NCBI GenBank assembly: GCA_963790305.1
Contig: CAWBOC010000003.1
Coordinates: 1 to 64,000 of the forward strand
Origin: an uncultured Gemmatimonadaceae bacterium
Lineage (GTDB): Bacteria; Gemmatimonadota; Gemmatimonadetes; Gemmatimonadales; Gemmatimonadaceae
DNA: 64,000 nucleotides
Direction: 5' to 3'
In this document: positions 6,391 to 25,527 of the stretch, piece by piece
Numbering within the stretch: position 1 is the stretch's first letter
How the letters are laid out: each line of letters starts with the position of its first letter
Program-made: the position numbers and the translations under genes
The notes under the pieces: generated by a model
What the model saw: only the letters and a program-made list of their open reading frames with translations
What the model was told of the DNA's origin: nothing
The model's database searches: none

Positions 6391-6494
6391 TAAAGGTGCT
6401 CAGGGTGCTCGACGTGCTCAAGGTGCTCCAGGGCACGGCAGTCCCCTTGAGCACCTCGAGCACCTCGAGCACCTTGAGCACCTTGAGCACCTTA
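6391..6494. repeat. Inverted tandem 9-mer array (TCRAGGTGC units) in a divergent promoter region
   Basis: Four left units (taaaggtgc, tcagggtgc, tcgacgtgc, tcaaggtgc) and five right units of ct(t/c)gagcac. Confidence 0.88.
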
Positions 6495-6532
6495 GTTACT
6501 CAACCGTGACCTTCCATTCGCTTCCTGTTCAC
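6494..6532 (+). promoter_or_regulatory. Putative Pho box upstream of udk-phoB-phoR
   Basis: Hexamers at exact 11-bp spacing: AGTTAC 6494, CGTGAC 6505, (ATTCGC 6516), GTTCAC 6527. Confidence 0.5.
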
Positions 6533-7161: not shown

Positions 7162-7877
7162 GCGCGGCGTCGACCGGCGGCGAGCGCGTGCTCATCGTGG
7201 ACGACGAGCCCGACATTCTTGCGCTCTGCAGCTATCATCTTGCCCGAGCCGGATACCGCGTCTCCACTGCTGCGAGCGGACCCGACGGCCTTCGCGCCGC
7301 TCGCGAAGAGCGTCCCGCGCTGATCGTGCTCGATCTCATGCTGCCCGGTATGTCCGGGTTCGACGTCCTCGAGCGCATTCGGGCCGACGTCGCCACACGC
7401 GACATCGCCGTCTTGATGCTCACTGCGCGGCGGGAAGAGCCCGACCGCCTTCGCGGACTCTCGCTCGGCGCCGACGACTACCTGACCAAGCCGTTCAGCC
7501 CGCCGGAGCTCGTGCTACGAGTCGGCGCGATCCTCCGACGCACGTCGGGCGCGGCCGTGTCACCAACCGATCATTCGACGGTCGGCCCGATCGGCATCGA
7601 TCGCGCTGCGCATCGCGTTTCGATCGACGGTCAGGAGATCGAGCTCACGCCGACGGAGTACAAGCTGTTGCTGACGCTGGCCGAGCGACGGGGACGGGTG
7701 CAGGGGCGTGCCCACCTGCTCGAGACCGTCTGGGACGCGGCGCCCGACATTCAGACGCGCACCGTCGACATGCACGTCCAGCGCCTGCGCGCGAAGCTGG
7801 GCCCCGCGGGCGAGCTCATCGAGACGGTACGCGGGTTCGGGTATCGGCTGCGCGCCGCACAGACGCGGAGTGCGTAG
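7158..7877 (+). CDS. phoB: OmpR/PhoB-family response regulator, probably PhoB
   Basis: REC domain (DDE, LDLMLP, GADDYLTKPF) plus winged helix (LTPTEYKLL, RTVDMHVQRLR, ETVRGFGY); next to the pst operon. Confidence 0.85.
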   Translation: MSAASTGGERVLIVDDEPDILALCSYHLARAGYRVSTAASGPDGLRAAREERPALIVLDLMLPGMSGFDVLERIRADVATRDIAVLMLTARREEPDRLRGLSLGADDYLTKPFSPPELVLRVGAILRRTSGAAVSPTDHSTVGPIGIDRAAHRVSIDGQEIELTPTEYKLLLTLAERRGRVQGRAHLLETVWDAAPDIQTRTVDMHVQRLRAKLGPAGELIETVRGFGYRLRAAQTRSA

Positions 7878-7904: not shown

Positions 7905-9614
7905 GTGCGGCTAGCACAGCGGCTGCTCCTCGGCTCTCTTCTCGTCATCGGCGTCATCCTCGTCCTGGTGATCGCGCTCAGCGAGCGCGGACTCCGGGAC
8001 GGAATGCTTCGCGCGATGACCGATCGTATGGAGGCTGACGCTCGCCTGCTCGGCGCGCTCTGGCGTCCGCGTGTCAACGCTGATTCGCTCGCCGACGCCA
8101 CGGCGGCGCTGCTTGGATTCCGCGTCACGCTGATCGACACTACCGGAACGGTCATTGGCGATTCGCAGTTCGACCCCCCGGCGCTCGCGCGTCTCGAGAA
8201 TCACGCCGCGAGACCCGAGATCGTTGCTGCCCGCAATGCGCCGCACGGCGCCGACCTTCGCGTGAGTCCCTCGGTCGGAGATGAAGAGCTCTACGTCGCG
8301 GTGCGCTGCCCTCTTGGGTTCGCGCGCGTCGCTGTCTCCACCGCGGAGGTCGACCGCACCATTGCCGGCGCAGGACAGTCGGTGTTGATCGCCGGTGTCA
8401 TCGGAGCGGTGGTGGCCATCGTGTTGGCGTTGCTGTTCGCGCGCACCATCTCGAGGCCGGTCGAGGAGCTGAGCGCGGTGGCGCGTGAGATCGCGGCTGG
8501 CGATCTCTCGAAACGTCCAACCCTTGCCGCGCCGGGCGAGGTCGGCGATCTCGCCGACGCGCTCCAGCGGATGACCGAGCAGCTGTCGAGTCGCCTCGTT
8601 GCTCTCGAGGAAGAAGACGTGCTCCTGAATGCGGTGATCGAATCGCTCAACGAGGCGGTGGTCGCCGTCGACGCACGCCGTCAGGTCGTGCGTATCAACG
8701 ACTCGGCACGACGCCTTCTTGCCGTTCGCGCTGCAACTCCCTTCTCGGCCGATTTGCTCCCCCGCGACCGCGAGCTCCGCGATGCGCTCGGGGTGGCCAT
8801 GGCCGGCCGCTCGGTCGATGGCGTCGAGTTCTCATTGGCGGGGCGAACGGTGGCCCTGGCCTCGCGACCGCTTGCACGAGGCGGGGCCGTCCTGGCAGCG
8901 TTCGACCTCACGGAGGTCCGCCGGCTGGAGACGATCCGGCGGGACTTCGTCGCCAACGTCTCCCACGAGCTGAAGACACCACTCACGGTGATCGGCGGAT
9001 TCGCCGAGACGCTGGCGGACCCCGCCGTGCCCGCTCCCGAGCGCCAGCGGTTCGCGGAGACGATCGTGACCAACGTTCGCCGCATGCAGCGCATCGTCGA
9101 TGATCTGCTCGACCTGTCCCGCATTGAATCCGGTGGGTGGGTTCCGCAGCCCGCTCGCGTCGACGTGGCGGCGGCCGCGAGTGATGCGATTCTTCCGTGC
9201 CGCGATAGCGCGCGCGAGAAGGGCGTAACTCTGGACCTCGACGTTCCGCGGGACGCGGCCACGGCACATGCCGATCCCACCGCTGTCCGACAGGTGATCG
9301 CCAATCTCGTCGACAACGCGATTCGCTATACGCCCCGGGGAGGGCGCGTCACCGTCGTTGCCGAGCGAGAAGGCGGCGGGGTGTGGCTCGGCGTGCGCGA
9401 CACGGGGGTCGGCATTCCTGTCGAGCACCTGTCCCGCATCTTCGAGCGCTTCTATCGGGTGGATCCTGCCCGGTCTCGTGAGGCAGGCGGAACGGGGCTA
9501 GGCCTCGCGATCGTCAGACATCTTGCCGAGGCACATGGGGGCCGTGTGCGCGCTGAGAGCGTGCTCGGCCGGGGCACCGCCATCGCGGCGTTCTTCCCGG
9601 ACCAGCGGAGCTGA
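7905..9614 (+). CDS. phoR: Sensor histidine kinase, PhoR-like (2 TM, HAMP, PAS, HisKA, HATPase)
   Basis: RRDFVANVSHELKTPLT, NLVDNAIRY, IFERFYRVD and GGTGLGLAIV motifs. Confidence 0.88.
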   Translation: MRLAQRLLLGSLLVIGVILVLVIALSERGLRDGMLRAMTDRMEADARLLGALWRPRVNADSLADATAALLGFRVTLIDTTGTVIGDSQFDPPALARLENHAARPEIVAARNAPHGADLRVSPSVGDEELYVAVRCPLGFARVAVSTAEVDRTIAGAGQSVLIAGVIGAVVAIVLALLFARTISRPVEELSAVAREIAAGDLSKRPTLAAPGEVGDLADALQRMTEQLSSRLVALEEEDVLLNAVIESLNEAVVAVDARRQVVRINDSARRLLAVRAATPFSADLLPRDRELRDALGVAMAGRSVDGVEFSLAGRTVALASRPLARGGAVLAAFDLTEVRRLETIRRDFVANVSHELKTPLTVIGGFAETLADPAVPAPERQRFAETIVTNVRRMQRIVDDLLDLSRIESGGWVPQPARVDVAAAASDAILPCRDSAREKGVTLDLDVPRDAATAHADPTAVRQVIANLVDNAIRYTPRGGRVTVVAEREGGGVWLGVRDTGVGIPVEHLSRIFERFYRVDPARSREAGGTGLGLAIVRHLAEAHGGRVRAESVLGRGTAIAAFFPDQRS

Positions 9615-9743: not shown

Positions 9744-12519
9744 ATGCCCCGACCATTCGTTCGCTGCACGTTCGCGCTTCACATCACCACGGCGATGCTG
9801 CTGGTGCCCCTCTCCTTGCTCGCTCAGTCACCGACGGGACGGATCGTCGGTCGGATCCTCGATGCCGCGTCGGGTCACGGAGTGACCGATGCCGGTATTC
9901 AGGTCGTGGGGACTACGCTTGGCGTGAACTCCGGCGTGGAGGGTCGATACACACTGACGAGCGTGCCCGCTGGGACCGTCACCATTCAGGTGCGTCTGCT
10001 TGGGTACCAGCCCAAAACCGTGACCGGACTTCTACTCGCCGGGGGGGCCACACTCGAACAAGACATCTCCGCTCACCCCTGCGACCGTTAGGCTCGACGC
10101 GACCGTCGTCACTGCGGATGCTGAGCGAGGCTCGGTGAACGCGGCGCTCGACGCGCAGCGACGGGCCGCTGGCATCGTGAGCGCGATCACCGCGGAACAG
10201 ATCCAGCAAAGCCCCGACGGCGACGCCGCACAGGCGATTCAGCGGGTGTCGGGAGTCACCGTCCAGGACGGCAAATACGTCTTCGTGCGCGGACTAGGTG
10301 AGCGTTACACGACGACGTCGCTGAATGGGGCGAGACTCCCAAGCCCCGAGCCGGAGCGCAAGATCGTGCCGCTCGACCTGTTTCCGTCCTCGTTGCTGCA
10401 GACGATCACGACCTCCAAGACCTTCACTCCCGATCTGCCAGGTGATTTCGCCGGGGCACAAGTGGACATCCGCACTCGGGAGTTTCCGGCACGCCGCTCG
10501 ATGAGCTACTCTGCGTCGATCGGCTACAACGCCGCTGCCACCGGAAAGGACATGCTTGCCGCGCCGCGAGCGGGCGCGGAGTGGATGGGGTTTGGCGGGC
10601 AGGAGCGCCGGCTTCCGAGTGGGCTTCGCACGGCAGGCGACCTGAGCGGCGTTTCCCGCACCCAGATGAATGATCATCTTCGCTCCCTTCGCGGCGTGTG
10701 GTCGACTCGTGAGGCGGCGGGTGCACCCAACTCATCCTTCGGGTTGGCGCTGGGCGGGGAGGATGCGGTTCTCGGTCGCAATCTCGGTTACGTCGCCTCC
10801 GCGTCCTACGCCTTCAGCCAGGAGGTGCGCGCCGACGAGACTCGGGCAACTGCCATCGAGAGTGGCGACGCTGCCGCGACGCCGTACAACGTCTTCAATG
10901 GAGGGACTGGCCGCACGAGTGTCCTGTGGGGTGGCGTCCTCAATCTCAGCACCTGGCTCGGCGCTCATACGAAGCTCACGCTCGACAACACATACAGTCG
11001 AAGCGCTGACAATGAAGCCCACAGCGATGAGGGATTTTTCGAGGAGCTCGGCTTCGACATCCGGCGCACGACGCTCCGGTACATAGAGCGGAGCGTCAGA
11101 TCGCATCGGCTGCGTGCGCAGCACGTGGCCGGTGAGAGGCACTCGCTCGATTGGTCCTTGACGTCGTCGGCGGTGACACGCGACGAGCCCGATCGTTCCG
11201 ACCTCGTCTACGGACGGGAGACGGACGTCGCAACTGGTGCGCCGCTGCCCTGGGCCTGGATCTCGTACAAGCCGGAGTCTGCGCGCCGCAATTTTGGTGA
11301 GCTGCGCGAGAACTCGCTCGGCGGCGACCTCGCATACGCACTCAAGATCGGTGCGCCAGAGCGAGCCGTCATGCTGAAGCTCGGCGCCGCACATCGAACG
11401 ACGCAGCGAGACGCGGATTCACGCTTCTACAACATCCTCGGCTCGTCACTCTCCCGGAGTCAGCGGGAGGGATCTCCAGAGGAAATCTTTGACGGTCGGT
11501 ATGCCCAGGGCGACGATGAGAGCCTGCTCCTTACCTCGAGCACTGCCGGCGGCGCGTACCGAGCGGACGAAGACGTAACGGCGGGCTTCGCCATGGCGGA
11601 CATCCCGCTCGGGCAGAGGCTGCGGATGATCGGTGGCGCGCGCGTCGAACGCTGGACCCTCGGGCTCGACGCGCGTCCTGTCATCGGAGAGCGCGTCACG
11701 AGCCAGTTCCGCAACACCAATGTGCTTCCCTCGCTGACGCTGAATCTGACGGTTACCGAATCCCAGAACATCCGGCTATCAGCGTCACGCACGTTGTCGC
11801 GTCCCGAGTACCGCGAGCTGGCTCCCATTACGTATCGCGAAGCCCTGGGCGATCAGGAGACGTTCGGCAACCCGCACTTGCGACGCGCACTCATCGAGAA
11901 TTACGACGCGCGCTGGGAATGGTACCCGAGCTCGGTCGAGGTGGTCAGTGTCGCGTTGTTCGGAAAGCGCTTCACCGATCCGATCGAGCGAATCGACGTT
12001 GCGTCGACAGGGAAGTCTCAGCTCAGCTTCGCTAACGCCGCCGGCGGGGATAGCTACGGTGTGGAGCTGGAGGTGCGGAAGGGCCTGGCGATCCTGTCGC
12101 CGACATTCGCCCCCTTCACGCTGTTCGCGAATGCCACGCTGATGCGGAGCGAAATTCGCGCAGGCTCGGACACCTTGTCCGCCCTGACCAACCCGGATCG
12201 TCCGATGCTCGGCCAGGCCCCGTATGTCGTCAACAGCGGAGTGGGATGGTCGCGCGGCCGAGCAAGCGCGACGGCGTTGTTCAACGTCGTCGGAAAGCGC
12301 GTCGCCGCCGCCGGCGTGGGAGGCCTGCCCGACACGTACGAGATGCCCCGCAACGTACTCGACCTATCGATGAGCGTACCGGTCAGCGGTGCGATCGCCG
12401 TCAAGGTCAATGCGAAAAACCTGCTCGACGCCCCGCATCTCGTCAGGCAGGGCGCGGTCATTCGCGAGCGCTATACGACCGGACGGGTGCTATCGCTCGG
12501 GGTGTCCTGGCGCGACTGA
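9744..12519 (+). CDS. TonB-dependent receptor with N-terminal carboxypeptidase-regulatory-like domain (one apparent +1 frameshift near 10069)
   Basis: Signal peptide, GRIVGRILDAASG..GTVTIQVRLLGY, plug motifs AQAIQRVSGVTV, VRGLGERY, VPLDLFP and beta-barrel C-terminus. Removing one base near 10069 joins DIS to LTPATVRLDATVVTADAERGS. Confidence 0.88.
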
Positions 12520-12526
12520 GGCGCGA

Positions 12527-12565
12527 CGTGACGAAGCCGTGACCGATCCGTGCCCGGCTGATGAC
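12527..12565 (+). promoter_or_regulatory. Pho-box-like array of four 11-bp direct repeats
   Basis: CGTGAC 12527, CGTGAC 12538, CGTGCC 12549, GATGAC 12560; 21 of 23 bases match the site before pstS. Confidence 0.75.
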
Positions 12566-12629
12566 GCGGCTGGCCTACGCTCCACTCATGACACCTGACA
12601 ACGCAACGACTTCCTCGAGAGGCTTCAGC

Positions 12630-14330
12630 ATGATCGTGCCGTTCAACCGAGCGAGGGCGGCGACTGCGCTGCTCGCGATCTCTTTGCTCACAGCAGCGTG
12701 CGGTGAGGATGACCCCATTCAGCCGGTGCGTCCTCCGACGCCGCCGAACGTCGCCGTGTCGGCAACGTCAGCGACCGCCGTGCGCGTCACCTTCGACGCG
12801 GTGAGTGGGGCAACCTCGTATCTCGTGCAACGCGCTCCCGGCGCTGGCGGAACGTACGCTACCGTCGGTACGCCAAACACGAATAGTTACGACGATGACG
12901 ATCTCGAGCCCAACACGGCGTATCGGTACCGCGTGGCTTCCGTTCGCGGGGGCGATACCAGCGCGTTCAGCGCGGATCGTAACGTCACGACACTTCAGGC
13001 GGGGCGCGCCCAGGCGATTCTCGACGGGACAAATCCCATCGCTGTGAATCGAACCTTGTACGCCGACACCGTCTATGTGCTCAAGGGGTTCGTCAAGGTT
13101 GCTCCAAGCGTGACGCTCACGATCCAGCCCGGAACGAAGATTGTCGGGGATACGAACACCGTCGGCAGCTCGCTGTACGTGCTGCGTGGCGCGCGCCTCG
13201 AGGCGAACGGAACGCGCGACAATCCGATCGTCTTCACCTCACAGCGCGCCGCGCCGAATCGCAAGCCCGGTGATTGGGGTGGCATCGTGATCATCGGCCG
13301 CGGAGTGATCAATCGCACCGCGAACCCCATTCTCACCGAGGGGCCTGCTGGCGTCTCGGAGAATTACGCCGGCGGGAGCGACAACAACGACTCGAGCGGA
13401 TCGCTCCGCTTCGTCCGCATTGAGTTCGCCGGTTACGATATCTCGAGCGGCAATGGCCAGGAGCTCAACTCACTCTCCATGTACGCCGTCGGTCGTGGCA
13501 CCACGCTGGAGTACGTACAGTCGCTGGCGGGCCTGGATGATTCGTTCGAGTGGTGGGGTGGCGCCGTCGATGGGCGATACCTCGTCTCGTATGAGGCGGG
13601 GGACGACCACTTCGACTGGACCGAAGGGTATCGCGGGCGCAACCAGTTTTTGATCGCCTATCAGTCGACTCGCCTGGCGCCGCGCACCGGCGCGGGGACC
13701 TTCTCGGGGGATCCACGTGCCTTCGAAGGCGACGGATGTGATCCTGCCGTGGCTGGTTGCACGGTCTCGGCGACCGGGACGAGCGAGCCTTTCTCACTTC
13801 CCGTGTTTGCGAATTTCACCGTGATCGGCCCTGGCAGCCTTGCCGGATTCCCCAGCGATGGCAACGCGCTCGTTGCGCGCCGCGGTACCGGTGGCGTGTT
13901 CGTGAACGGGGCGATCGCTCGCTGGCCAGGGCGCGCGGTCAACGTGCGCGATGCCTTCACCGACTCGCTCCGTCTTCGAGACAGCCTCTACATCGGCTAT
14001 CTCGCGCTGGCCGAGAACGGTGCGAACTACGATCCGGACGGATCCAACTTTGGACAGGAAGCAAAATTTGCGGCCAATGGAATGACGGCCGCTGCTGGAG
14101 CAGCAACGACGCTGTTCGTGAGTGTCAGCGGGCCGAACTTCGACTTTACCCCGGTGGCCGCGGGACCCGCCGCCACTGGAGGCCTGACGACGTTCCCCGC
14201 TCGCATAAGCGCGCGCGTCACAAACTTTCTCGGGGCGACTTCCCTCCCGGCGACGCCCTATCGAGGCGCCGCGAGCCCCGACGGGTCGAACAAATGGTGG
14301 GAAGGCTGGACGGCGCACGCTACGAACTGA
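12630..14330 (+). CDS. Surface lipoprotein with FN3 domain and beta-rich domain, recalled as ElpS-like
   Basis: Lipobox LTAAC, FN3 (DLEPNTAYRYRVAS), GTRDNPIVFTS, GDWGGIVIIG, SGSLRFVRIEFAG, DDSFEWWGG, DDHFDW and terminal WWEGWT. Family assignment is from memory, not a search. Confidence 0.7.
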   Translation: MIVPFNRARAATALLAISLLTAACGEDDPIQPVRPPTPPNVAVSATSATAVRVTFDAVSGATSYLVQRAPGAGGTYATVGTPNTNSYDDDDLEPNTAYRYRVASVRGGDTSAFSADRNVTTLQAGRAQAILDGTNPIAVNRTLYADTVYVLKGFVKVAPSVTLTIQPGTKIVGDTNTVGSSLYVLRGARLEANGTRDNPIVFTSQRAAPNRKPGDWGGIVIIGRGVINRTANPILTEGPAGVSENYAGGSDNNDSSGSLRFVRIEFAGYDISSGNGQELNSLSMYAVGRGTTLEYVQSLAGLDDSFEWWGGAVDGRYLVSYEAGDDHFDWTEGYRGRNQFLIAYQSTRLAPRTGAGTFSGDPRAFEGDGCDPAVAGCTVSATGTSEPFSLPVFANFTVIGPGSLAGFPSDGNALVARRGTGGVFVNGAIARWPGRAVNVRDAFTDSLRLRDSLYIGYLALAENGANYDPDGSNFGQEAKFAANGMTAAAGAATTLFVSVSGPNFDFTPVAAGPAATGGLTTFPARISARVTNFLGATSLPATPYRGAASPDGSNKWWEGWTAHATN

Positions 14331-14920
14331 TGCGCCACGCTCTCGGTCTCGCACTGCTCGCCGCCGTCATGGCGAGCAGTGCGTGCTCGCGCTCCGATGC
14401 TCGCGCGACCACGGTCGCCCCATCGGACACGCTTCACTCGTCCGAGGAGTCGCTTCGCCGTTTTCGCCACACGCTCACTCCGGTTGAATCGCTCGCACCG
14501 GTATTCAAGAGCAAGGAGGACCTTGCTCGCGCTTACGTCGCTGCCATCCTGTCAAGCGACATGCGCGGCATCGCGCAGACGTTGATGACACGCGCGGAGT
14601 TCGCCTGGGTGTATTATCCCGAGAATCCGCTCTCCAGGCCGCCGTACGAGCTCCCCGCGGGACTCGCCTGGTTCGAGCTCGAAGGCAATAGCCTGGCGGG
14701 CGTTCGCCGCGCCCTCGCGACCTACGGCGGCCGGGGTGTCGTCCTTCGTGAGCTCCAGTGCTCGCTTGCGCCCGTTGAACAGCGGACGAACCGGCTGTGG
14801 AATGGATGCGTTGCGGTGCTCAGACATGAAGACGGAAGCGACGCAGAGGTGCGGATGTTTGGAACCATCCTCGAGCGAGGAGGGAGATTCAAGCTCGTCA
14901 CCGCAGCCAACGATTTGTAA
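14330..14920 (+). CDS. Hypothetical lipoprotein
   Basis: TGATG overlap with the upstream gene; signal MRHALGLALLAAVMASSAC. Confidence 0.7.
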   Translation: MRHALGLALLAAVMASSACSRSDARATTVAPSDTLHSSEESLRRFRHTLTPVESLAPVFKSKEDLARAYVAAILSSDMRGIAQTLMTRAEFAWVYYPENPLSRPPYELPAGLAWFELEGNSLAGVRRALATYGGRGVVLRELQCSLAPVEQRTNRLWNGCVAVLRHEDGSDAEVRMFGTILERGGRFKLVTAANDL

Positions 14921-14942
14921 CGCGCTGTTACCGTTCCGATAC
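14916..14942 (+). promoter_or_regulatory. Possible Pho box upstream of the porin gene
   Basis: TGTAAC 14916, TGTTAC 14926, CGATAC 14937 (spacings 10, 11). Confidence 0.4.
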
Positions 14943-15042
14943 ACGCCACCCCATCCGTGTTCGAGTCTGCCCGGTAGTCTTGATGCGCGAGCGCGCACGC
15001 GATACTCCGTCGCGACGCCTGAGCCCACTCGAGACTCCGGTC

Positions 15043-16236
15043 ATGCCACGTCACCATCGCATACCCGTCGCTCTTCTGCTGTGCGCACTCGTCGCGCATG
15101 CCGTCCATGCGCAACGACCGGACAGCGTCGTCCGCTCGGACACCGCCCGGCCCGCCGAGGCGCCGAAAGCCGCCGAGCCCGCGAAGACACCACAGCTCGA
15201 GTTCTCCGGGGTCATCTTCGCGAACTGGAGCTACCGCACCGACAGGGGCGCACGTGCTCAGAACAGGTTCGACGTCGAGCGCGCCTATCTCACCTTTCGA
15301 ATGCCTGCCGGCGACCGCGCGAGCGTGCGCGTCACGGCCGATGTCTTTCAGAACACCGTCGCGCCCGGAGACGCGTTCTATCGCGGGTGGGCATTCCGGG
15401 CGAAGTACGCGTACCTCCAGTATGACGCGCTTCGCGGCCGGAGTGGGCTCACCGCCACTGCCCGCCTCGGGATGCTGCAGACGGTGGTCATCGAGCACGT
15501 CGAGTCCTTCTGGCCGAGGTGGATCTCTCGCACCGCGGTTGAGCTGAATGGGTTCTTTCAGTCCGCCGACCTTGGCCTCGCGACCCTGGTCGGATTGCCC
15601 GGCAAGCGGGGCGAGATCTACGCGACGGTCACCAACGGTCCCGGCTACTCCTCGCGAGAGACCGATCGCTTCAAGGATGCTGCGCTTCGCCTAACGCTCA
15701 CCCCATTCGCGGCCAAAGCCGGCTTTCTGCAAGCGACGGCGTTGTCGGTCTGGGGTTACAAGGGCGCGATCGCCTCACGATTCGTCAGCGGGGGGACGGG
15801 ACAGGTGGGGCCCGTCGGCGAAGGGCTGCAGCGCGACCGCTGGGGTGTGTTCGCGGGAGTGCGCGATCGCCGGCTGACGCTGGGTGCCGAGCTCGCGAGG
15901 CGGATCGAGGAGGGCGAGCTGGGCAACAACACTGTGGCAAGCCCACGAGTGCTCATCGACAGCACAAGCACGCTCGTATCGGCATTCGCTGTCGTACGGC
16001 CACTCGAGCTCCTCACGCCCGCGACACGAAGTCCGTTGGCCGCGGTGGTGCGTTATGACCGGGCCCGGTTCAACGACGACGCGGCGCCTGCGCAGAGGCT
16101 CATTATCGCCGGGCTCATTTGGGACATCACGTCGCGGCTCTCAATGGCGGCTGACTACCAGCAGCTGCTTCCGCGTGATGGAGCGCCGGGCAGTGATGCG
16201 AAGACCTGGTTTGCCCACTTCGTGGCGAATTTCTGA
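15043..16236 (+). CDS. Outer-membrane porin, probably phosphate/anion-selective (OprO/OprP-like role)
   Basis: Signal peptide, FDVERAYLTF and KYAYLQY motifs, alternating beta-strands, C-terminal Phe (FVANF); directly upstream of pstS. Confidence 0.7.
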   Translation: MPRHHRIPVALLLCALVAHAVHAQRPDSVVRSDTARPAEAPKAAEPAKTPQLEFSGVIFANWSYRTDRGARAQNRFDVERAYLTFRMPAGDRASVRVTADVFQNTVAPGDAFYRGWAFRAKYAYLQYDALRGRSGLTATARLGMLQTVVIEHVESFWPRWISRTAVELNGFFQSADLGLATLVGLPGKRGEIYATVTNGPGYSSRETDRFKDAALRLTLTPFAAKAGFLQATALSVWGYKGAIASRFVSGGTGQVGPVGEGLQRDRWGVFAGVRDRRLTLGAELARRIEEGELGNNTVASPRVLIDSTSTLVSAFAVVRPLELLTPATRSPLAAVVRYDRARFNDDAAPAQRLIIAGLIWDITSRLSMAADYQQLLPRDGAPGSDAKTWFAHFVANF

Positions 16237-16335: not shown

Positions 16336-17412
16336 GTGAAGCGAGACCTCCTGGTCGTCCTTGCACTCGGCGTGGCTGCGTGCGCTCCCTCGGATCGACA
16401 GGGCAGCGACACCGCCGCTGGAAGCGTGACCGGCTCCGCCGGCGTGGCCCTCACTGGCGCGGGCGCGACATTTCCGTACCCGATTTACTCGAAGTGGTTC
16501 AGCGACTACGCCACGCGGACCGGCGTGAAGATCAACTACCAATCGATCGGCTCGGGCGGGGGCATTCGTCAGCTCTCGGAGGGCACAGTCGATTTCGGCG
16601 CCACCGACAGCCCGATGAGTGACAGCGAGCTGGCCAAGTCCAAGGGCGGGGCGATCCTGCACATCCCGACGGTGATGGGCGCGGTCGTCGCGACGTACAA
16701 CGTTCCGGGCCTCGCCGAGCCCCTCAAGCTCACCGGCCAGGTGCTCGCCGACATTTTCCTGGGGCGCATACGCCGCTGGAACGACGCGCGCATCGCGGCA
16801 CTCAATGGTGACGCGGCGCTGCCTAACCAGGACATCCTCGTGGTCCATCGCTCCGACGGAAGCGGCACGACCTACATTTTCACGGATTACCTCAGCAACG
16901 TGAGCCCGGCGTGGAAGGGCGGGCCCGGAACGGGAAAGGAAGTGCAGTGGCCCGCGGGGCTGGGTGCAAAGGGCAACGAAGGGGTCGCGGGTCAGGTGAA
17001 GCAGACCCCCGGATCGATCGGGTACGTCGAGCTCGCTTACGCGAAGCAGAACCGCCTCGCGTTCGCGAACATGCAGAATGCCTCGGGCGAGTTCGTGACT
17101 CCCACGATCGAGTCGGTCACCGCCGCCGCGGCAGGAGTCGTGGCGCGGCTGCCGAATGACACCGACTACCGAATCTCCATCGTGAACGCGCCGGGGACTG
17201 GAGCGTACCCGATCTCATCGTTCACCTGGATCATTCTTCATCAGCAGCAGCCCGATGCCGACAAAGGTCAGAAGCTGGTCGACTTCCTGCGATGGGCGCT
17301 CCGCGAAGGTGGCGCATTTGCCGCCGCCCTCGACTACGCGCCACTGCCGCAGGAGATGGTCACTCGGCTGGAGCAGCGCCTCGGGACCGTGACGTTCGGC
17401 GCACGCGCGTGA
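16336..17412 (+). CDS. pstS: Phosphate ABC transporter substrate-binding lipoprotein
   Basis: GAGATFPYP, YQSIGSGGG, RSDGSGTT, GAKGNEGV, GSIGYVE; GGAG RBS, GTG start and lipobox VAAC. Confidence 0.96.
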   Translation: MKRDLLVVLALGVAACAPSDRQGSDTAAGSVTGSAGVALTGAGATFPYPIYSKWFSDYATRTGVKINYQSIGSGGGIRQLSEGTVDFGATDSPMSDSELAKSKGGAILHIPTVMGAVVATYNVPGLAEPLKLTGQVLADIFLGRIRRWNDARIAALNGDAALPNQDILVVHRSDGSGTTYIFTDYLSNVSPAWKGGPGTGKEVQWPAGLGAKGNEGVAGQVKQTPGSIGYVELAYAKQNRLAFANMQNASGEFVTPTIESVTAAAAGVVARLPNDTDYRISIVNAPGTGAYPISSFTWIILHQQQPDADKGQKLVDFLRWALREGGAFAAALDYAPLPQEMVTRLEQRLGTVTFGARA

Positions 17413-18395
17413 CGACTAGCGGGACTTCCGAAGTCGCGCCGGAAGAGGAGGGCCTCGCCGCCCGCCTCTCCGGAGCGAACATCGGAGATCGCGCGTATCG
17501 GATAGTCATTACGGCATTCGCCGTGTGCGTTCCCGTTCTCCTGTTGCTCATCGCGTGGGAGATCGGGATCGCGGGATGGCCGGCATTCCGTGAGTTCGGG
17601 CCTGGCTTTCTCGCATCGAGCACATGGGACCCGGTGCGCGGTGTCTTTGGAGCCGCGCCGGCGATCTATGGCACGATCGTGTCATCGATCCTCGCTCTCC
17701 TCATCGCGACGCCGCTTGCCCTGGGCGTCGCACTGTTTCTGTCCGAGTTCGCGCCACCATGGTTACGCCAGCCGGTCGCGTTTCTCGTTGACTTGCTCGC
17801 CGCGATTCCGAGCGTGGTATACGGTCTGTGGGGGATTTTCGTACTCCTGCCGCTTCTGCGCGAGCACCTGATGCCGTTCCTGCGCGATACGCTGCATCTC
17901 GGCTCGACACCGCTGTTCAGCGGGCCCGCGTACGGGCCGAGCATGCTCGCTGCCGGGATCATTCTGGCGATCATGGTGCTGCCCTACATCTCCTCGGTGT
18001 CGCGCGAGGTCCTGCTCGCCGTGCCGCGCTCGCAGCGGGAGGCAGCGCTTGCCCTGGGCGCAACGCGATGGGAAGCGATCCGCGGCGCCGTGCTCCCGTA
18101 CGCTCGCTCGGGCATCCTCGGCGGCGTGATTCTCGGCCTGGGGCGGGCCCTCGGGGAAACGATGGCGGTGACGATGTTGATCGGGAACAAGCACGACATC
18201 AGCGCCTCGCTGCTTGCCCCCGGCTACACCATGGCGTCGCTCATCGCCAACGAATTCGCCGAGGCGACGGGCGATTTGCACCTCTCGGCGCTGATGGCGG
18301 TCGGCTTCACCCTCTTCTGCCTAACGCTCCTGGTGAACGCGATCGCGCGGTGGCTGGTGTGGCGCGTCACGCGTGGCGCCGGAGTGGCCCGATGA
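17409..18395 (+). CDS. pstC: Phosphate ABC transporter permease PstC
   Basis: [37 protein letters not shown]. Confidence 0.95.
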   Translation: MTTSGTSEVAPEEEGLAARLSGANIGDRAYRIVITAFAVCVPVLLLLIAWEIGIAGWPAFREFGPGFLASSTWDPVRGVFGAAPAIYGTIVSSILALLIATPLALGVALFLSEFAPPWLRQPVAFLVDLLAAIPSVVYGLWGIFVLLPLLREHLMPFLRDTLHLGSTPLFSGPAYGPSMLAAGIILAIMVLPYISSVSREVLLAVPRSQREAALALGATRWEAIRGAVLPYARSGILGGVILGLGRALGETMAVTMLIGNKHDISASLLAPGYTMASLIANEFAEATGDLHLSALMAVGFTLFCLTLLVNAIARWLVWRVTRGAGVAR

Positions 18396-19321
18396 GCGCG
18401 ACGGTCGCCCAACGGCCGAGCGCCCACACCCCGCGGCCCAGTCAGCGGCAACGGGCGTTCGCTGACCGTACGCGACGGCGCGTGCGGCGGCGGCGCGTGG
18501 CCAACACGGTGATGGTGGTCGTCCTCGGCACTGCGGCCGTCGCCGCCACCCTGCCCCTGATCTTCATTCTGTGGCACCTCGTGCGTGAAGGGGCGAGCGC
18601 ACTGTCGCTTGACTTCTTCACTCAAATGCCGAAGCCGGTTGGCGAGGCGGGAGGTGGGCTCGCCAACGCCATCGTGGGAACGCTCATTCTGATCGGAATC
18701 GCCACGGCGATCGGGCTGCCCATCGGGGTGGGCGCCGGACTGTACCTCGCCGAGTATCGGCGTTCGCCGCTCGCTACGGTCGTGCGCTTCCTCTCCGATG
18801 TATTGAACGGACTGCCCTCGATCGTCATGGGCATCTTCGCCTGGCAGTTCCTGGTGCGCCCGGTCGGTCACTTTTCGGCACTGGCCGGCGGGGTCGCGTT
18901 GGCGGCGATGATGATTCCCATGGTCACGCGCACCACCGAGGAGATGGTTCGCCTGGTGCCGGTCGCGCTGCGCGAGGCGGCGTTGGCGTTAGGCTATACC
19001 CGGTGGCGGACCTCGGTCACCGTCGTACTGCGCACCGCCACTGCCGGCATCGTCACTGGCGCGCTCGTCGCCGTCGCCCGCATCGCCGGCGAGACCGCTC
19101 CCCTGCTCTTCACCGCGTTCGGCAATCAGTTCTGGTCGGTTCGACTGGATGAGCCCGTTGCCGCGCTTCCGCTTCAGATCTTCAACTATGCCGTCAGCCC
19201 CTATGATGAGTGGCATGCCCTCGCCTGGGCGGGAGCCCTCGTCCTCATTACGCTCGTCTTCCTCATCAGTCTCGCTGCCCGCTTCGCGACCCGCGCGCGG
19301 TTTGGCGGGATGGGTGACTGA
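18392..19321 (+). CDS. pstA: Phosphate ABC transporter permease PstA
   Basis: [31 protein letters not shown]. Confidence 0.95.
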
Positions 19322-20141
19322 CGACGCTCGCATGACCGCGCCGAAGCCGACGGCGGCTGCGCCGCACGCGGAGCGCGAGACGCGTGCGCGCGTCGCGGTA
19401 CGCAGCCTCAATGCGTTCTTCGCCGACGTGCAGGCCATTAAGGACGTGTCGCTCGCGTTCGACGATCGCAGCGTGACGGCGATCATCGGACCCTCAGGAT
19501 GCGGCAAGTCGACATTCCTGCGCTGCTTGAACCGAATGCACGAGACCATTCCAGGCGCGAGAGTGTCAGGGTCGGTCGAGCTCGACGGGACGGACATCTA
19601 CGCCCGGGGCTCGAACCCGATTCGCGTACGGCAGCATATCGGCATGGTCTTCCAGCGACCGACACCGTTCCCGACGATGTCCGTTCGCGATAACGTGGCC
19701 GCCGGGCTTCGTATCCTGAGCAAGCGTCCTTCGCGGAAGGAGACCAACCAGATCGTGGAGCGTGCCTTGCGACGCGCCGCTCTCTGGGATGAAGTCTCCG
19801 ATCGGCTCGACAGCAGCGCGCTCGGCCTCTCCGGCGGCCAGCAGCAACGGCTTTGCATCGCGAGAGCCCTGGCAACGGAACCGGGTGTGTTGCTGCTGGA
19901 CGAGCCGACGGCCTCGCTCGACCCACTGAGCACGCAACGCGTGGAGGAGCTCCTCTACGAGTTGCGCCGGGACATGACGGTCGTGATCGTGACGCACAAC
20001 ATGCAGCAAGCGGCGCGCGTCTCCGACACGACCGCGTTCTTTCTGAGCGGGGAGCTGGTGGAGGCGGCCCCGACACGAGCGATGTTTACGACGCCGGCCG
20101 ACCCACGGACCGAGGCGTACATCACAGGGAGATTCGGATGA
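19314..20141 (+). CDS. pstB: Phosphate ABC transporter ATPase PstB, copy 1
   Basis: [38 protein letters not shown]; start GTG 19314 or ATG 19332. Confidence 0.94.
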
Positions 20142-21013
20142 AGATTGCGGATTACGCGGGTGCCCCCCGGGCAGGGCGCATTGCGGGTGAGGACCACCGA
20201 CGTCAAGCGGGCGATGGCTCGCCTGCACAATCCGCAATCAGCAATCCGCAACTGCCTCACCCCGGGACCATCACCGCGACCGACTTCTCTTTCTGGTACG
20301 GAAAAAAGCAGGCGCTGAAGAGCGTGAGCCTGACGATGCCGGCGCGCTCGATCACCTCGCTCATCGGGCCCTCCGGATGCGGGAAATCGACCTTTTTGCG
20401 CTCGATCAATCGCCTCAATGAGCTGATTCCCGGCGTGCGCACCCAGGGCGAAGTCCAGATCGATGGTGAGAACATCTATGCGCCCGGAACCGACCTCGTC
20501 TCGTTGCGCCAGCGCGTGGGAATGGTCTTCCAGAGATGGAACCCGTTTCCCAAGTCGATCTACGACAATGTGGCCTACGGCCCGCGCATCAACGACGCAC
20601 CGCCGCGCAACGAGCTCGACGGCATCGTCGAGAGCTCGCTTCGACGCGCAGCGCTCTGGGACGAGGTGAAGGATCGGCTGCGCGAGAGCGCGCTGAGTTT
20701 ATCGGGAGGACAACAGCAGCGGCTGTGCATCGCGAGAGCCCTGGCCAACGAGCCACAGGGGCTGCTGCTCGATGAGCCGGCCAGCGCCCTCGACCCGAGC
20801 GCGACGCAGAAGATCGAGGAGCTCCTCTACGAGCTCAAGAACGAGTTGACGGTGGTGATCGTGACGCACAACCTGCAGCAGGCCGCTCGCGTCTCCGACC
20901 GAACCGCATTCTTCTACCTCGGTGAGCTCATCGAGACGGACGCGACCGACCGCATGTTCACGAGTCCGCGAGAAGAGCGGACCGAAGCATATATCACGGG
21001 GAGATTCGGATGA
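20138..21013 (+). CDS. pstB: Phosphate ABC transporter ATPase PstB, copy 2, with an N-terminal extension containing heptamer repeats
   Basis: Same Walker A, signature and Walker B motifs; ATGA overlap with pstB1. Confidence 0.93.
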
Positions 21014-21708
21014 GTCCCGACACAGGCTACCGCCACTTTCACGATCAGCTCGACGCGCTCAAGCAGCGACTGATCGACATGTCCGAGCACGCTGAGCGAC
21101 TCGTCGAGCTTTCGGTTCAGGCACTCCTCGAGCAGGATGCCGATAAGGCCCACGCGGTCATCGCTGGAGACCGCACGGTCGATGCGCTCGAGATCGAGGT
21201 CGAGCAGGCCGCGATCGCGCTGCTGGCGCTGCAGCAGCCGCTCGCGCGCGATCTGCGGTACATCATCGGGGCCATCAAGGTCTCGAGCGATCTCGAGCGC
21301 GTCGGCGATCACGGTGTGAACATTGCCGAATCAGCGCTGCGCCTCATTGAGATGAAGGCGAACATCACCCCGGACCCGGAAATTCAGGACATGGCCCGTC
21401 GCTCGCGCGACATGCTTCGCGATGCGCTCGACGCCTTCGTGCGTGCGGATGGGTCTCTCGGCCGCGCCGTGTGCCGGGCCGATGACGCCGTCGACTCGCT
21501 GCACGATTCGGTGTTCCGGATTCTCCTCACCCACATGATGGAGAGCCCGCCGCGAATCTCGGAGGCGCTCGAGCTTCTCCTGGTGAGCCGGAACCTCGAG
21601 CGTGTCGCCGATCTGGCGACGAACATCGGAGAAGACGCTGTGTACCTCGCGGAAGGCAAGCAAATCAAGCATCACTTCGAGGACCGGAGCACGACACCTG
21701 CCGCCTGA
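21010..21708 (+). CDS. phoU: Phosphate signalling regulator PhoU
   Basis: [16 protein letters not shown] and [14 protein letters not shown] motifs. Confidence 0.95.
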
Positions 21709-23344
21709 CACCGCGACCAAGCCGGTTCACATCGCCGCCAAACCTGGCAGCAACGGCGGCGACGGCGAAGCGCGTACCGAGCGCGTCGCCGCGATCGACA
21801 TCGGATCGAACTCGGTGCGGCAGATTGTCGCCGACGTCGCGCCGGATGGCGGTATTCGCGTCGTGGACGAAATGCGCGCGCACCCGCGCCTGGGCGCGGG
21901 TCTGGACGAAGCGGGCGAGCTCACGGACGTGTCAATGCGCGCGGCCGCCGATGCGGTGAGCCATATGGTCACCCTGGCGCGGCAGCTCGGAGCCGCGCGC
22001 ATCGAAGCGGTGGCCACGAGTGCCGTCCGAGACGCCGCGAACGCGAGCGCTTTCCTCGACACGGTTCGCAAGGAAACAGGCATTCGCGTCCGCGTGCTCA
22101 CCGGTCAGGAGGAGGCGCTGCTCGGTTTTCGCAGCGCCCTGGCGCATTTCGATCTTGGGCGCGGGCGCGCGGCGGTGATGGACATCGGCGGCGGCTCCCT
22201 GGAGCTCGCCCTGTCGGTCGACGGCCTGCTCGAGCGTCTGGAATCCTTCCCTTTCGGGGCCCTGCGATTGACCGAGCGGTACCTCGGCGACCGCGTTCGG
22301 CGCGGCAGAGTGCGCAAGCTTCGCAAGCACGTTCGGGAGGAGCTCCGAACGAGGCTTCGCGCGCGCCACTGGCGTGGTGCACGCCTCATCGCCTCAGGGG
22401 GAACCTTTACCAGCCTCGCCGGGATGGTGCTCGCACGTCAGGAGATGAGCGTCGCGCAGAGCGTCCACGGTACCACCGTGCCGCGCAGCGAGCTCGAGCA
22501 CGTCCTGGAGGCACTGCAGGACATGTCGCTGGAAGAGCGGCGCGCCGTTCCCGGTCTGAGCGCGGCGCGCGCCGACATCATCATCGCCGGGCTGGCGGTG
22601 ACGGCGGAGGTGATGGCCCGCGTCGACGCACCCGAGCTGCTCGTCTCCGCGTACGGCATTCGCGAAGGGCTGCTGCTCGAGACGGCGCGCATCGCGCCCG
22701 CGGCCGCGAGCTCAGGCGACGCGCGTGCGCGCTCGGTGCAACGCCTCGCCGATGCCTGCCGGTTCGAGGAGCGCCATTCCCGACATGTCCAGCGACTGGC
22801 ACTTCAACTCTTCGACGCCATCGGACCGCGCCTCGGCGCGACGCCTGACGAGCGGGATCTGCTGTCGGACGCGGCGCTCCTGCATGACATCGGATACCAC
22901 ATCAGCTACGAGCGCCACCACAAGCATTCGTATTACCTGATCCTGCACGCTGAGCTACTCGGCATGTCCCCGGCCGATCAGGTCGTGGTCGCGAACGTTG
23001 CGCGCTATCATCGGGGAACTCTACCGAAGAAGAAGCATCGGAATTTCGGCGTGCTCGACAGGGAGTTTCGCGCCCGCATCAGGCGCCTCGCGGCAATCCT
23101 GCGCGTTGCTGACGGATTCGACCGCGGGCACATCGGCGCGGTGGAGCGCGTGAAGTGCCGCTGGATAGAGCGGGCCCTTCGCATCACGCCAGTGCCGACT
23201 TCGGCGGCACGATCGCTCCGCCTGGAGCTCTGGGGGGCCAGCCGAAAGAGCGAGCTGCTTGCGAAGGTCGCCGGAGTCCCGGTAGAGATCGTCGCGCCGG
23301 ATGGAAGTATCTCCAACTGGCGCGAGGGAGACGAGCCCGACTAG
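21698..23344 (+). CDS. ppx: Ppx/GppA exopolyphosphatase with HD domain (start uncertain)
   Basis: AAIDIGSNS, ATSAVRDA, DIGGGSLE, GGTFT, RADII, GIREG, LLHDIG, LRVADG. Confidence 0.9.
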   Translation: MPPDTATKPVHIAAKPGSNGGDGEARTERVAAIDIGSNSVRQIVADVAPDGGIRVVDEMRAHPRLGAGLDEAGELTDVSMRAAADAVSHMVTLARQLGAARIEAVATSAVRDAANASAFLDTVRKETGIRVRVLTGQEEALLGFRSALAHFDLGRGRAAVMDIGGGSLELALSVDGLLERLESFPFGALRLTERYLGDRVRRGRVRKLRKHVREELRTRLRARHWRGARLIASGGTFTSLAGMVLARQEMSVAQSVHGTTVPRSELEHVLEALQDMSLEERRAVPGLSAARADIIIAGLAVTAEVMARVDAPELLVSAYGIREGLLLETARIAPAAASSGDARARSVQRLADACRFEERHSRHVQRLALQLFDAIGPRLGATPDERDLLSDAALLHDIGYHISYERHHKHSYYLILHAELLGMSPADQVVVANVARYHRGTLPKKKHRNFGVLDREFRARIRRLAAILRVADGFDRGHIGAVERVKCRWIERALRITPVPTSAARSLRLELWGASRKSELLAKVAGVPVEIVAPDGSISNWREGDEPD

Positions 23345-25527
23345 AACGACGCGCCGGCCACGTCCTGTGGACGCGGGGTAGGCTCGACGCTGACGTCGAC
23401 GCGGGGCGAGGGTCGGGCCGTCTCGGGAAGCGGCAGCCCCCACGAGTCACTCATGAAGGTCGCGTGCGCACTGATCTCGGGTAGACCGTCCGCCGCTCGC
23501 TTCAGATACGAGCCATCGGGGCGAAGATCCCACGACTGCCGATTGTCGGCTAGCGACGTCTCGAGGAGACGCCGCATTCGGATGTGGAGCGCCGGATCCT
23601 CGATGGGCACCACCGCCTCGACCCGCCGATCGAAGTTGCGGGGCATCCAGTCGCTCGACCCGATGTAGCACTCGGGAGCGCCGTCGTTCTCGAACATCCA
23701 GGCGCGCGAATGCTCGAGAAAGCGACCGACAATGCTCGTCACCCGGATGCGATCGCTCACGCCAAGCACGCCGGGGCGCAGGCAGCAAATGCCGCGAACG
23801 ATGAGGTCGATGTCGACGCCGGCGCGGGACGCGCGATAGAGCTCGCGAATGATCTCCGGATCGACGAGCGCATTCATCTTCGCGATGATCCGCGCGGGTC
23901 GCCCCGCACGCGCATGCTCCGCTTCCCGTTCGATCAGCGTGATGAACCGCTCGCGCAGGTTCCCTGGCGCCACCAGAAGCTTGCGATACAGCCGTTGGCG
24001 TGAAAACCCGGTGAGGAAGTTGAAGAGGTCGCTGACATCCGCGCCGATCGACGGGCTGCTGGTAAGAAAGCCGAGATCGGTGTAGACGCGCGCGGTCCTC
24101 GTGTTGTAGTTCCCGGTGCCGAGGTGGACATACCGCCGAATACCGTCCGGCTCGCGGCGGACCACCAACGCGGTCTTGGCATGGGTCTTCAGCCGCACCA
24201 GGCCGTAGACGACGTGAACGCCAGCGCGCTCGAGCGTGCGCGCCCACGCGATGTTGTTCGCTTCGTCGAAGCGGGCCTTCAGCTCCATGACCACGACCAC
24301 CTGCTTACCGCGCTGCGCCGCCTCGACGAGGGCGCGCACGATCGCCGTGTCGCCCGACGTCCGGTACAGCGTGAGCTTGATCGCGAGCACATCGGGATCC
24401 TCGGCCGCCTCCTCGAGGAATCGCTCGACCGAGGTGGTGAACGAATCGTAGGGATGATGCACGAGCAGATCACGCTCGCGGACGGCGTCGAAGACGGGGC
24501 GGCCATCGTCGCGCAGGGCCGCCGGCGTCACCGACGCGCAGGGCGCATCGCGAAGCGTCGGGACATCGAGCTGCGAGAGCGCCAGCAGGTCGCCGAGCTC
24601 GAGAAGAGGACCCGTCTTCTGCACGTCACGCTCCGAGAGCATGCTCCCTTCCGGCGTGTCGTCACGAAGCTCCTCGAGCAGGAGCGCGCGCATCGTCTCG
24701 GGCATGCCCTCCTGCACCTCGATTCGGACGACCTCGCCGAAGCGGCGCTGGAAGACCTGCTCTTCAATGGTCGCCAGCAGGTCCTCTGGCTCTTCCGCGT
24801 CGGCGAGGTCGATGTCCGAGTAGCGATTGACGCGGAAAGCGAACCATTGAACGACTTCCATCCCGGGAAAGAGTGCACCGAGATTGGCGCCCACCAGCAA
24901 CTCGAGCGGGATGAAGTGTCCGGGACGTCCGAACGGCACCCATCGCGGCAGACTCTTCGGCACCTTTACGCGGGCGAAGTGCACCGTGCCGGTGGCCGCG
25001 TCGCGGATCTCGACCGCGAGCGACAGCGAGAGATTCGAGATGTACGGGAACGGGTGAGCGGGATCGACGGCGAGCGGCGTGAGAACCGGGAAGACCTGCG
25101 ACTCGAAGAATTGATCGACGACGGCCCACTCGGAGGGTGTGAGATCGCTCATCCCGACGAGGCGTACACCGTGCTCGGCGAGGCCTGGCAGTACGATGTC
25201 GTACAGACACGCCCGTTGACGCTCCAGCAGCGACTGCACGCGAACATCGATGGCATCGAGCTGTTCCTGCGGCGTCATCCCGTCGGGCGTTGTCTGGGTG
25301 ACGCCGGCAGCGACCTGCCGCCGCAGCCCCGCCACGCGCACCATGTAGAACTCATCGAGATTCGTGCTGACGATCGACAGGAACTTCAGCCGTTCGAGGA
25401 GCGGCGTTCTCGAGTCGAAAGCCTCGCTCAGCACGCGCTCGTTGAACGCGAGCCAGCTGAGCTCCCGGTTGAGCAGGAGCCGCGAATCGAGGAGCGCTTC
25501 GTCGGGGACGACGCTGGTGGCGATCAA
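23341..25527 (-). CDS. ppk1: Polyphosphate kinase 1
   Basis: NRELSWLAFNERV, NLDEFYMVRVA, HPFPYISNLS, HHPYDSF, ELKARFDE, GTGNYN, GRFLEHSR. Confidence 0.96.
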   Translation of the reverse strand: MIATSVVPDEALLDSRLLLNRELSWLAFNERVLSEAFDSRTPLLERLKFLSIVSTNLDEFYMVRVAGLRRQVAAGVTQTTPDGMTPQEQLDAIDVRVQSLLERQRACLYDIVLPGLAEHGVRLVGMSDLTPSEWAVVDQFFESQVFPVLTPLAVDPAHPFPYISNLSLSLAVEIRDAATGTVHFARVKVPKSLPRWVPFGRPGHFIPLELLVGANLGALFPGMEVVQWFAFRVNRYSDIDLADAEEPEDLLATIEEQVFQRRFGEVVRIEVQEGMPETMRALLLEELRDDTPEGSMLSERDVQKTGPLLELGDLLALSQLDVPTLRDAPCASVTPAALRDDGRPVFDAVRERDLLVHHPYDSFTTSVERFLEEAAEDPDVLAIKLTLYRTSGDTAIVRALVEAAQRGKQVVVVMELKARFDEANNIAWARTLERAGVHVVYGLVRLKTHAKTALVVRREPDGIRRYVHLGTGNYNTRTARVYTDLGFLTSSPSIGADVSDLFNFLTGFSRQRLYRKLLVAPGNLRERFITLIEREAEHARAGRPARIIAKMNALVDPEIIRELYRASRAGVDIDLIVRGICCLRPGVLGVSDRIRVTSIVGRFLEHSRAWMFENDGAPECYIGSSDWMPRNFDRRVEAVVPIEDPALHIRMRRLLETSLADNRQSWDLRPDGSYLKRAADGLPEISAHATFMSDSWGLPLPETARPSPRVDVSVEPTPRPQDVAGASF

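Follow-up and report, generated by a model that had tools for sequence, protein, structure and literature searches.

What does a group of envelope genes do between a phosphate-sensing gene pair and a phosphate uptake operon? The question is raised by a stretch of 64,000 nucleotides from an uncultured Gemmatimonadaceae bacterium (positions 1 to 64,000 of contig CAWBOC010000003.1, assembly GCA_963790305.1; the whole stretch is hereafter the window, and the host genome is G000). Here a TonB-dependent receptor, two lipoproteins and a porin are encoded on the same strand between phoR (7905-9614) and pstS (16336-17412), as the original prediction had described. Homology identifies the locus as the Gemmatimonadota version of a published pair, consisting of a receptor and an ElpS-family lipoprotein; the idea is largely in print already (PUSIV in PMC8115612; bioRxiv 2023.03.17.533168). 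New features are the small lipoprotein, a phylum-specific third member added to the known pair, a box of 11-bp period before the receptor or the large lipoprotein, and a near-invariant Asp/Glu ladder in the latter that recalls a PL9 calcium site by motif register. The three genes concerned are:

9744-12519, + strand: TonB-dependent receptor of the Cc0171 type, with CarboxypepD_reg-like domain, plug and barrel (Pfam PF13620/PF13715, PF07715, PF00593, PF14905)
12630-14330, + strand: ElpS-family large lipoprotein, 566 amino acids, with lipobox Cys24, an FN3 domain and a predicted right-handed beta-helix bearing an Asp/Glu ladder (by homology and AlphaFold)
14330-14920, + strand: small lipoprotein, 196 amino acids (197 codons with the stop), with Cys19 and conserved Cys144 and Cys160; no Pfam or NCBIfam match

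The ElpS-family lipoprotein

The elpS gene of Caulobacter crescentus was located through its published promoter primer; the open reading frame downstream of it has an LAGC lipobox, and behind it come a receptor and gspD/E/F-type genes, matching the published description. The large lipoprotein of the window aligns with this ElpS (CC0170/CCNA_00169) at 38% over 216 amino acids (BLASTP, E 2e-29), the profile match covers positions 159-555 with E 1e-61, and the same acidic ladder is found in both; by sequence it is a true ElpS homologue, as had been proposed. The statement that Caulobacter elpS is encoded beside a TonB receptor also proved correct, the receptor being Cc0171, found downstream of it. 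The two loci differ in several respects: in the window the receptor comes first, the reverse of the elpS-cc0171 order, the lipoprotein carries an additional FN3 domain, and no type II secretion system (T2SS) adjoins the module.

Cys24 is present in at least 90% of alignment A2, and the lipobox was identified by eye. The AlphaFold model (predicted local distance difference test, pLDDT, 92.9) consists of an FN3 domain and a right-handed beta-helix, and a VIA structure search gave Z up to 22.5 to beta-helices, the nearest folds being lyases, epimerases and tailspike depolymerases (Z 19-22.5). Among about 300-330 aligned domain copies, E278, N280, D303, D304, E307, D325, D326, D329, E366 and N395 are conserved in 93-98%, D368 in 88% and R417 in 85%. 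This is a large family, with 6,026 clusters at 50% identity, and members with 2-5 copies of the domain are numerous; PF28492 was found on all 120 homologues among the matches listed. A sequence search of the PDB with the protein returned FN3 matches only, and its profile gave nothing meaningful. The linkage to one receptor subfamily is one-to-one across phyla; in a plasmid collection, the five loci inspected out of 23 matches (Sphingomonas, Hymenobacter, Indioceanicola, Pseudoalteromonas and Parabacteroides) all have the homologue adjoining a receptor.

A second subfamily was also observed, made of long paralogues with open frames of 730-1170 codons, often in tandem pairs (loci L096, L097, L100, L103, L104, L107 and L109). 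They lie several kb from a related receptor, beside a protein with FN3, cohesin and PKD domains, and without the small gene.

Among the beta-helices, the highest identity in the list (15%) belongs to the PL9 pectate lyase Pel9A (PDB 1RU4; Z 21.4, root-mean-square deviation 3.5, 302 residues aligned). In Pel9A, Ca2+ is held by Asp209, Asp233 and Asp237, and Lys273 is the catalytic residue (PMC10992409). A DDxFD motif is common to both proteins, DDGFD at the calcium site of Pel9A and DDHFD in the large lipoprotein, and the rung spacing from it to Lys273 and to E366, respectively, is similar by eye. According to this inferred register, Glu would occupy the Lys273 position in 95% of 315 domain copies, and the large lipoprotein carries extra carboxylates relative to Pel9A. 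The register is an inference, since comparison with one PL9 protein by hhalign was not significant (probability 0.1%), leaving no sequence or profile link, and several other beta-helices score as high; no full-length PL9 protein was found in 121 Gemmatimonadota genomes.

The TonB-dependent receptor

The receptor is homologous to Cc0171 (26% over about 830 amino acids), and each adjoins an ElpS-family lipoprotein. It was the sole match when the host genome was searched with Cc0171, and the top match for each of six ElpS-type receptors from Alpha- and Gammaproteobacteria and Bacteroidota, Cc0171 included. Its plug and barrel are complete and contain many invariant residues. The best family for the C-terminal part is TIGR01782 (262 bits, cut-off 310), while TIGR01783, TIGR01785 and TIGR01786 gave 35, 48 and 24.5 bits against cut-offs of 223, 317 and 324; the expectation that the receptor would not be of the iron or B12 type is upheld to the extent that no iron or haem family reached its cut-off among the models scanned, which included none for B12. 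A PDB sequence search with the receptor profile gave no meaningful match.

The original prediction had compared the module to SusCD systems, and this likeness holds by analogy only. The SusC/RagA model TIGR04056 gave 22 bits with the N-terminal part and no match with the C-terminal part, the two being scanned separately, against a cut-off of 368; no SusD-family Pfam (PF07980/PF14322) matched either lipoprotein, and the predicted fold of the large one is a beta-helix and not helical. Membership of the SusCD family was rejected on these grounds.

The receptor reading frame is broken by a +1 shift near 10068-10070, while it is unbroken in all 72 relatives holding both parts. Twelve frameshift-like breaks occur in the 131,363 bases of G000 covered by relatives' proteins, including two in trigger factor and others in the clpP region and trpE; thus the shift is probably an assembly error, and the assembly is to be read with indel errors in mind. 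It is very unlikely that the receptor is a true pseudogene in this strain, with the module beginning to decay, a possibility that is independent of the function of the family: the frameshift is present in the sequence and the module has been lost in family members, once by internal deletion, but the breaks elsewhere point to assembly indels, and the large lipoprotein, the small gene and the boxes are all intact. No near-identical contig bridging the frameshift was found. In the window, breaks of this kind lie at about 34300, 34850, 35080, 44200 and 47940, in trigger factor, the clpP region, a GspE/PilB-like ATPase and trpE. Matches to a secretin and a GspE-like protein are near-identical on contigs C3 and C11 of G000, which suggests a duplicated assembly segment.

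The small lipoprotein

A PDB sequence search with the profile of the small lipoprotein gave nothing meaningful. Its model has a pLDDT of 86, and Foldseek returned a best match with E 0.033, probability 0.96 and TM 0.34/0.48, the top ranks being mostly NTF2-like or cystatin-like; such a fold is weakly indicated by the model. D77 and E90 are invariant, and P97, W114, the two cysteines, F177 and K188 are near-invariant; these residues look structural.

In a distribution survey of 201 genomes of the phylum Gemmatimonadota, the large lipoprotein was found in 79, the small gene in 71 and both in 67. Of the four genomes with the small gene only, G094 has what a deletion left of it, G148 has a remnant interrupted by stops, and the other two gave weak, partial matches. 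By co-occurrence (67 of 71), the 197-codon protein behaves as a dedicated partner, the role proposed for it from the sequence. It lies directly 3' of the large lipoprotein gene in 63 of 75 loci with enough flank, and G157 (two copies) and G093 (one copy) have it away from this locus or at the edge of a contig; its profile was built from these same loci, which inflates its scores there. Every named match belongs to Gemmatimonadota. Searches of 251 Pseudomonadota genomes, the large lipoprotein being present in 22, and of the Caulobacter genome did not find the gene; Bacteroidota lay outside the survey. Neither the third lipoprotein nor a Gemmatimonadota version of the module is described in the literature searched, which covers few subscription journals.

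The two lipoprotein genes had been described as translationally coupled. The TGATG overlap is present in the window, but it is not conserved: among 42 loci with a called start only three overlap, two of them of the TGATG type, and start calls are rough, 20 of 62 loci having no called start. Coupling as a conserved trait was rejected, the stop-start overlap being local to a few loci.

Conservation and loss of the module

Eighty relatives' loci were fetched out of 94 matches to the large lipoprotein outside G000. The receptor is directly upstream of the large lipoprotein in 71 of 78 loci, and 61 of 73 Gemmatimonadota loci have the whole triad with the small gene, so that the predicted linkage is conserved in relatives. 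The complete layout, with phoR upstream and pstS downstream, occurs in 12 of the 80 loci, and 39 of the 61 triads have at least one pho gene within 10 kb or so.

In one relative (L117:9650-10620, G094:C28) a deletion has brought the 5' end of the receptor gene up against the 3' part of the small lipoprotein gene, while the box, phoBR, the porin and the pst genes remain; the three genes thus disappeared together, as a unit. Elsewhere, a decayed receptor and large lipoprotein, or small-gene remnants with stops and frameshifts, lie next to intact phoBR (L125 in G195 and L121 in G148). Genome G167, of the same genus, gave no orthologue of the large lipoprotein, the small gene, the porin or phoR with these queries and is uninformative.

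Putative regulation by PhoB

PhoB boxes typically look like the 11-bp direct repeats that stand here before pstS and phoBR. A strict box was defined as GTNAC-N6-GTNAC, a direct repeat with an 11-bp period, and a matrix was made from 70 relatives' sites, chosen by pattern and excluding the window, and scored over 8.6 million genome positions. The sites in the window are:

6495..6510, + strand: box before udk-phoB-phoR, 18.7 bits, rank 7 in the genome
9628..9643, + strand: box before the receptor, with one mismatch, 14.3 bits; 36 genome sites are as good
12528..12543, + strand: box before the large lipoprotein, with almost the same sequence as that of pstS, 21.6 bits, rank 2 in the genome
16246..16261, + strand: box before pstS, 22.7 bits, top of the genome

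The original prediction placed Pho-box-like repeats before the receptor, the large lipoprotein and, weakly, the porin. The second of these is strong and the first stands with its mismatch, while the gap before the porin holds a 10-bp-spaced palindrome and a best matrix score of 11.2 bits, equalled by 133 genome sites; the box at 6495 had been missed. Among relatives, 29 of 68 loci have the strict box 5' of the receptor, 26 of 72 have it in the gap between receptor and large lipoprotein, and for pstS it precedes the gene in 4 of 22 cases; 47 of 68 loci have it before the receptor or the large lipoprotein, including 17 of the 26 without a pho gene nearby. The spacing of repeat pairs peaks at 11 bp, a peak to which 200 mononucleotide shuffles never rose above 2, and a similar site (17.2 bits) is kept before the receptor remnant of G094. 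Of 29 genome sites with at least 15 bits, none besides those of pstS, the large lipoprotein and udk-phoBR is clearly before a phosphate gene by eye.

These boxes are likely, as predicted binding sites for PhoB, to place the module under Pho regulation, and the strong box at 12528 suggests a second, internal promoter for the large lipoprotein. The same matrix scores -0.7 on the Caulobacter elpS promoter, so the box sequence differs; in that species PhoB dependence has been demonstrated, elpS induction requiring PhoB (PMC5172544), while here it is predicted from the boxes.

The porin and the neighbouring genes

On the + strand the order is udk, phoB, phoR, receptor, large lipoprotein, small lipoprotein, porin, pstS, pstC, pstA, two pstB, phoU, ppx and ppk. 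The flanking features are:

7158-7877, + strand: phoB-like response regulator; best NCBIfam match PhoB with 232 bits, under the cut-off, the name being taken from the pst neighbourhood
7905-9614, + strand: phoR-like sensor kinase; PnpS, WalK and PhoR matches all under their cut-offs, the name again from the pst neighbourhood
15043-16236, + strand: likely OprO/OprP-type phosphate porin (Atlas 0.97, with 196 features shared with a cluster that is 93% Porin_O_P, PF07396)
16336-17412, + strand: pstS, above the NCBIfam cut-off for PstS
16336..25527, + strand: pstS, pstC, pstA, two pstB, phoU, ppx and ppk, the names other than pstS being read from translations

The porin had been counted as part of the module, which is not borne out. 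A homologue occurs in 5 of 80 loci, with pstS close by each time; it is kept in the G094 deletion and is also present in genomes without the module. The porin is therefore linked to pstS and not to the module, and a four-gene unit including it was rejected. A separate Porin_O_P family occurs in 9 of 80 loci. Neither the porin of the window nor its G094 relative gave a match to hidden Markov models, PF07396 included. In G073, phoR and the porin are convergent and 1.6 kb apart.

Divergent from udk-phoBR, a double 2',3'-cyclic phosphodiesterase/5'-nucleotidase of 1052 amino acids is encoded at 3229-6387 on the - strand; such a gene is close to the module in 17 of 80 relatives' loci, a weak hint at nucleotide-type substrates. 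Between it and udk, positions 6395-6492 hold two inverted arrays of a 9-bp unit that could form a long hairpin, and a similar repeat array lies in the gap between receptor and large lipoprotein of L074. A GT4 glycosyltransferase is beside the module in nine loci (L031, L032, L035-L037, L040, L046, L049 and L058) and a PAP2 gene in nine, largely the same set; since PUSIV also carries a glycosyltransferase, phosphorus-free lipid remodelling is possible. In one genome a PhoX gene directly adjoins the small lipoprotein gene (G183:C6:77501-78403).

Related systems

Much the same genes are found in PUSIV/PUSIII of Flavobacterium johnsoniae, with OprP, phoR, phoB, the receptor Fjoh_0545 and the lipoprotein FII, Fjoh_0546; the last two are strongly induced on depletion of inorganic phosphate (Pi) and located with phoBR and OprP (PMC8115612). 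PUSIV shares with the window phoBR, a phosphate porin, a receptor with PF07715, PF13715 and PF14905, and an ElpS-related lipoprotein of the pectin-lyase fold, the homology between Fjoh_0546 and the large lipoprotein being taken from the link to ElpS given in that paper. The window differs in that pstSCAB-phoU-ppx-ppk follow.

In Bacteroides thetaiotaomicron, BT4055/BT4056 are a predicted pair with a lid other than SusD, assigned to the same family through ElpS and Fjoh_0546: BT4056 is 40% to Fjoh_0546 and homologous to ElpS, the pair is adjacent in 621 genera, and AlphaFold-Multimer placed BT4056 on the outer face of BT4055 (bioRxiv 10.1101/2023.03.17.533168). That paper describes no third lipoprotein, whereas the window module has one. 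PusCD1 and PusCD2 provide a working analogy, being receptors and surface lipoproteins of Pi starvation that import organophosphate; however, they are true SusC/SusD proteins binding phosphate by Arg, Thr and Tyr, while the large lipoprotein of the window is predicted to be an acidic beta-helix. The preprint leaves Pus3 and Pus4 unresolved (bioRxiv 10.64898/2026.09.03.749221).

Function of the module

The reading preferred here, given about an even chance, is that of a PhoB-controlled, TonB-driven importer in which cations bound to the large lipoprotein retain a phosphorus compound and the small lipoprotein assists. Receptor, ElpS-family lipoprotein and small lipoprotein would form a conserved unit, importing a phosphorus compound too large or too scarce for a porin. 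PhoB would bind the boxes, and the second promoter would give an excess of the large lipoprotein, which may sit as a lid on the outer face of the barrel, as predicted in print for BT4055/BT4056. Carboxylates cannot bind the phosphate anion directly; therefore, the near-invariant ones, about eight, would bind Ca2+ or another cation, bridging to a polyanion. The ligand would most plausibly be a nucleic-acid fragment or nucleotide, polyphosphate or a metal-organophosphate, from which periplasmic enzymes, such as the neighbouring double 5'-nucleotidase, may release Pi for PstSCAB; separately, the porin would let in free Pi. The small lipoprotein may be a non-catalytic helper of the large one in folding, export or anchoring. 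Import of organophosphate by other complexes of a TonB-dependent receptor and a lipoprotein has been described (bioRxiv 10.64898/2026.09.03.749221).

Several observations weigh against this importer. The module is dispensable (the large lipoprotein is in 79 of 201 genomes), as the G094 deletion and the G195 decay also indicate; pho genes are absent from about 10 kb around 22 of 61 triads, 21 of 68 loci lack a strict box, only 4 of 22 relatives have the strict pattern upstream of pstS, and the link with the nucleotidase is mostly confined to close kin. In Caulobacter, deletion of elpS leaves the phosphatase activity of the supernatant unchanged, cc0171 expression is constitutive and ElpS is shed (PMC2996285, PMC5172544), and in Flavobacterium FI makes up 18.7% of the exoproteome (PMC8115612); given this shedding and abundance, a free binder or an enzyme fits as well as a lid. 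For BT4055/BT4056, few high-confidence contacts were predicted and no fitness phenotype appeared in 519 experiments (bioRxiv 10.1101/2023.03.17.533168).

A more specific version of the importer must be called somewhat unlikely. Here ElpS-family lids would be PL9 relatives that have lost catalytic activity, and their ladder would clamp several Ca2+ ions; each lid would thereby capture polyanionic phosphorus, such as nucleic-acid fragments, polyphosphate or phytate, and supply its own TonB receptor with it. Gemmatimonadota would have an obligatory NTF2-like lipoprotein in addition, a third subunit serving in folding, export or anchoring of the lid instead of the proteobacterial T2SS link.

The nearest folds of the large lipoprotein being lyases, epimerases and tailspike depolymerases, it might instead be a surface or shed, cation-dependent hydrolase or lyase of a phosphate polymer, such as teichoic acid or a phosphodiester capsule, with the receptor importing the products. 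The conserved cluster with N280, N395 and R417 does resemble an active site, the gene has its own box, homologues are shed and abundant, and the domain is repeated 2-5 times in family members. This enzyme is nevertheless unlikely, considering the Glu in 95% of copies where the motif register puts the catalytic Lys273 of PL9, the missing sequence or profile link to PL9, and the inactivity of purified ElpS as a phosphatase on p-nitrophenyl phosphate (pNPP). Alternatively, the metal itself could be the ligand: the large lipoprotein would chelate Ca or Fe, either to supply metal-dependent phosphatases or to liberate Pi from mineral phosphates, and the metal or its complex would enter through the receptor. 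The ladder is made of carboxylates only, TonB receptors commonly carry metals, and PhoX is directly beside the small gene in the G183 locus. Furthermore, overexpressed ElpS raises phosphatase activity, though the purified protein has none on pNPP (PMC2996285, PMC5172544). A metal ligand is weakened, however, because neither PhoX nor PhoD nor PhoA was found in G000, which is 94% complete, and 41 of 79 genomes with the large lipoprotein lack PhoX, while 22 of 60 PhoX genomes lack the lipoprotein (kin not being independent counts); it appears distinctly unlikely, and an obligate link to PhoX was rejected. Finally, the pair could serve the envelope under phosphorus starvation, in adhesion, in a surface coat or in export of the large lipoprotein through the receptor, and import nothing. 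The great abundance of homologues (PMC8115612), the neighbours of lipid-remodelling type (GT4 and PAP2, nine loci each) and the FN3, PKD and cohesin domains of the paralogous loci would suit such a role, which is made highly improbable by a complete plug and barrel with many invariant residues, by the one-to-one linkage to one receptor subfamily across phyla and by the invariant pocket residues of the large lipoprotein.

Significance

Few products of phosphate starvation in Caulobacter and Flavobacterium are induced as strongly as the ElpS-type pair, which is reported in 621 genera. The module is real and its Pho regulation is likely; its core is already in print, and the phylum-specific third lipoprotein is a variant. 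The locus adds to the known pair a set of named ladder residues, a phylum-level PhoB box, predicted from sequence, and a small partner gene whose presence nearly always goes with that of the large lipoprotein. Gemmatimonadota are common soil bacteria; an importer of bulky phosphorus compounds in about 40% of the sampled genomes would, if true, matter for phosphorus cycling in soil.

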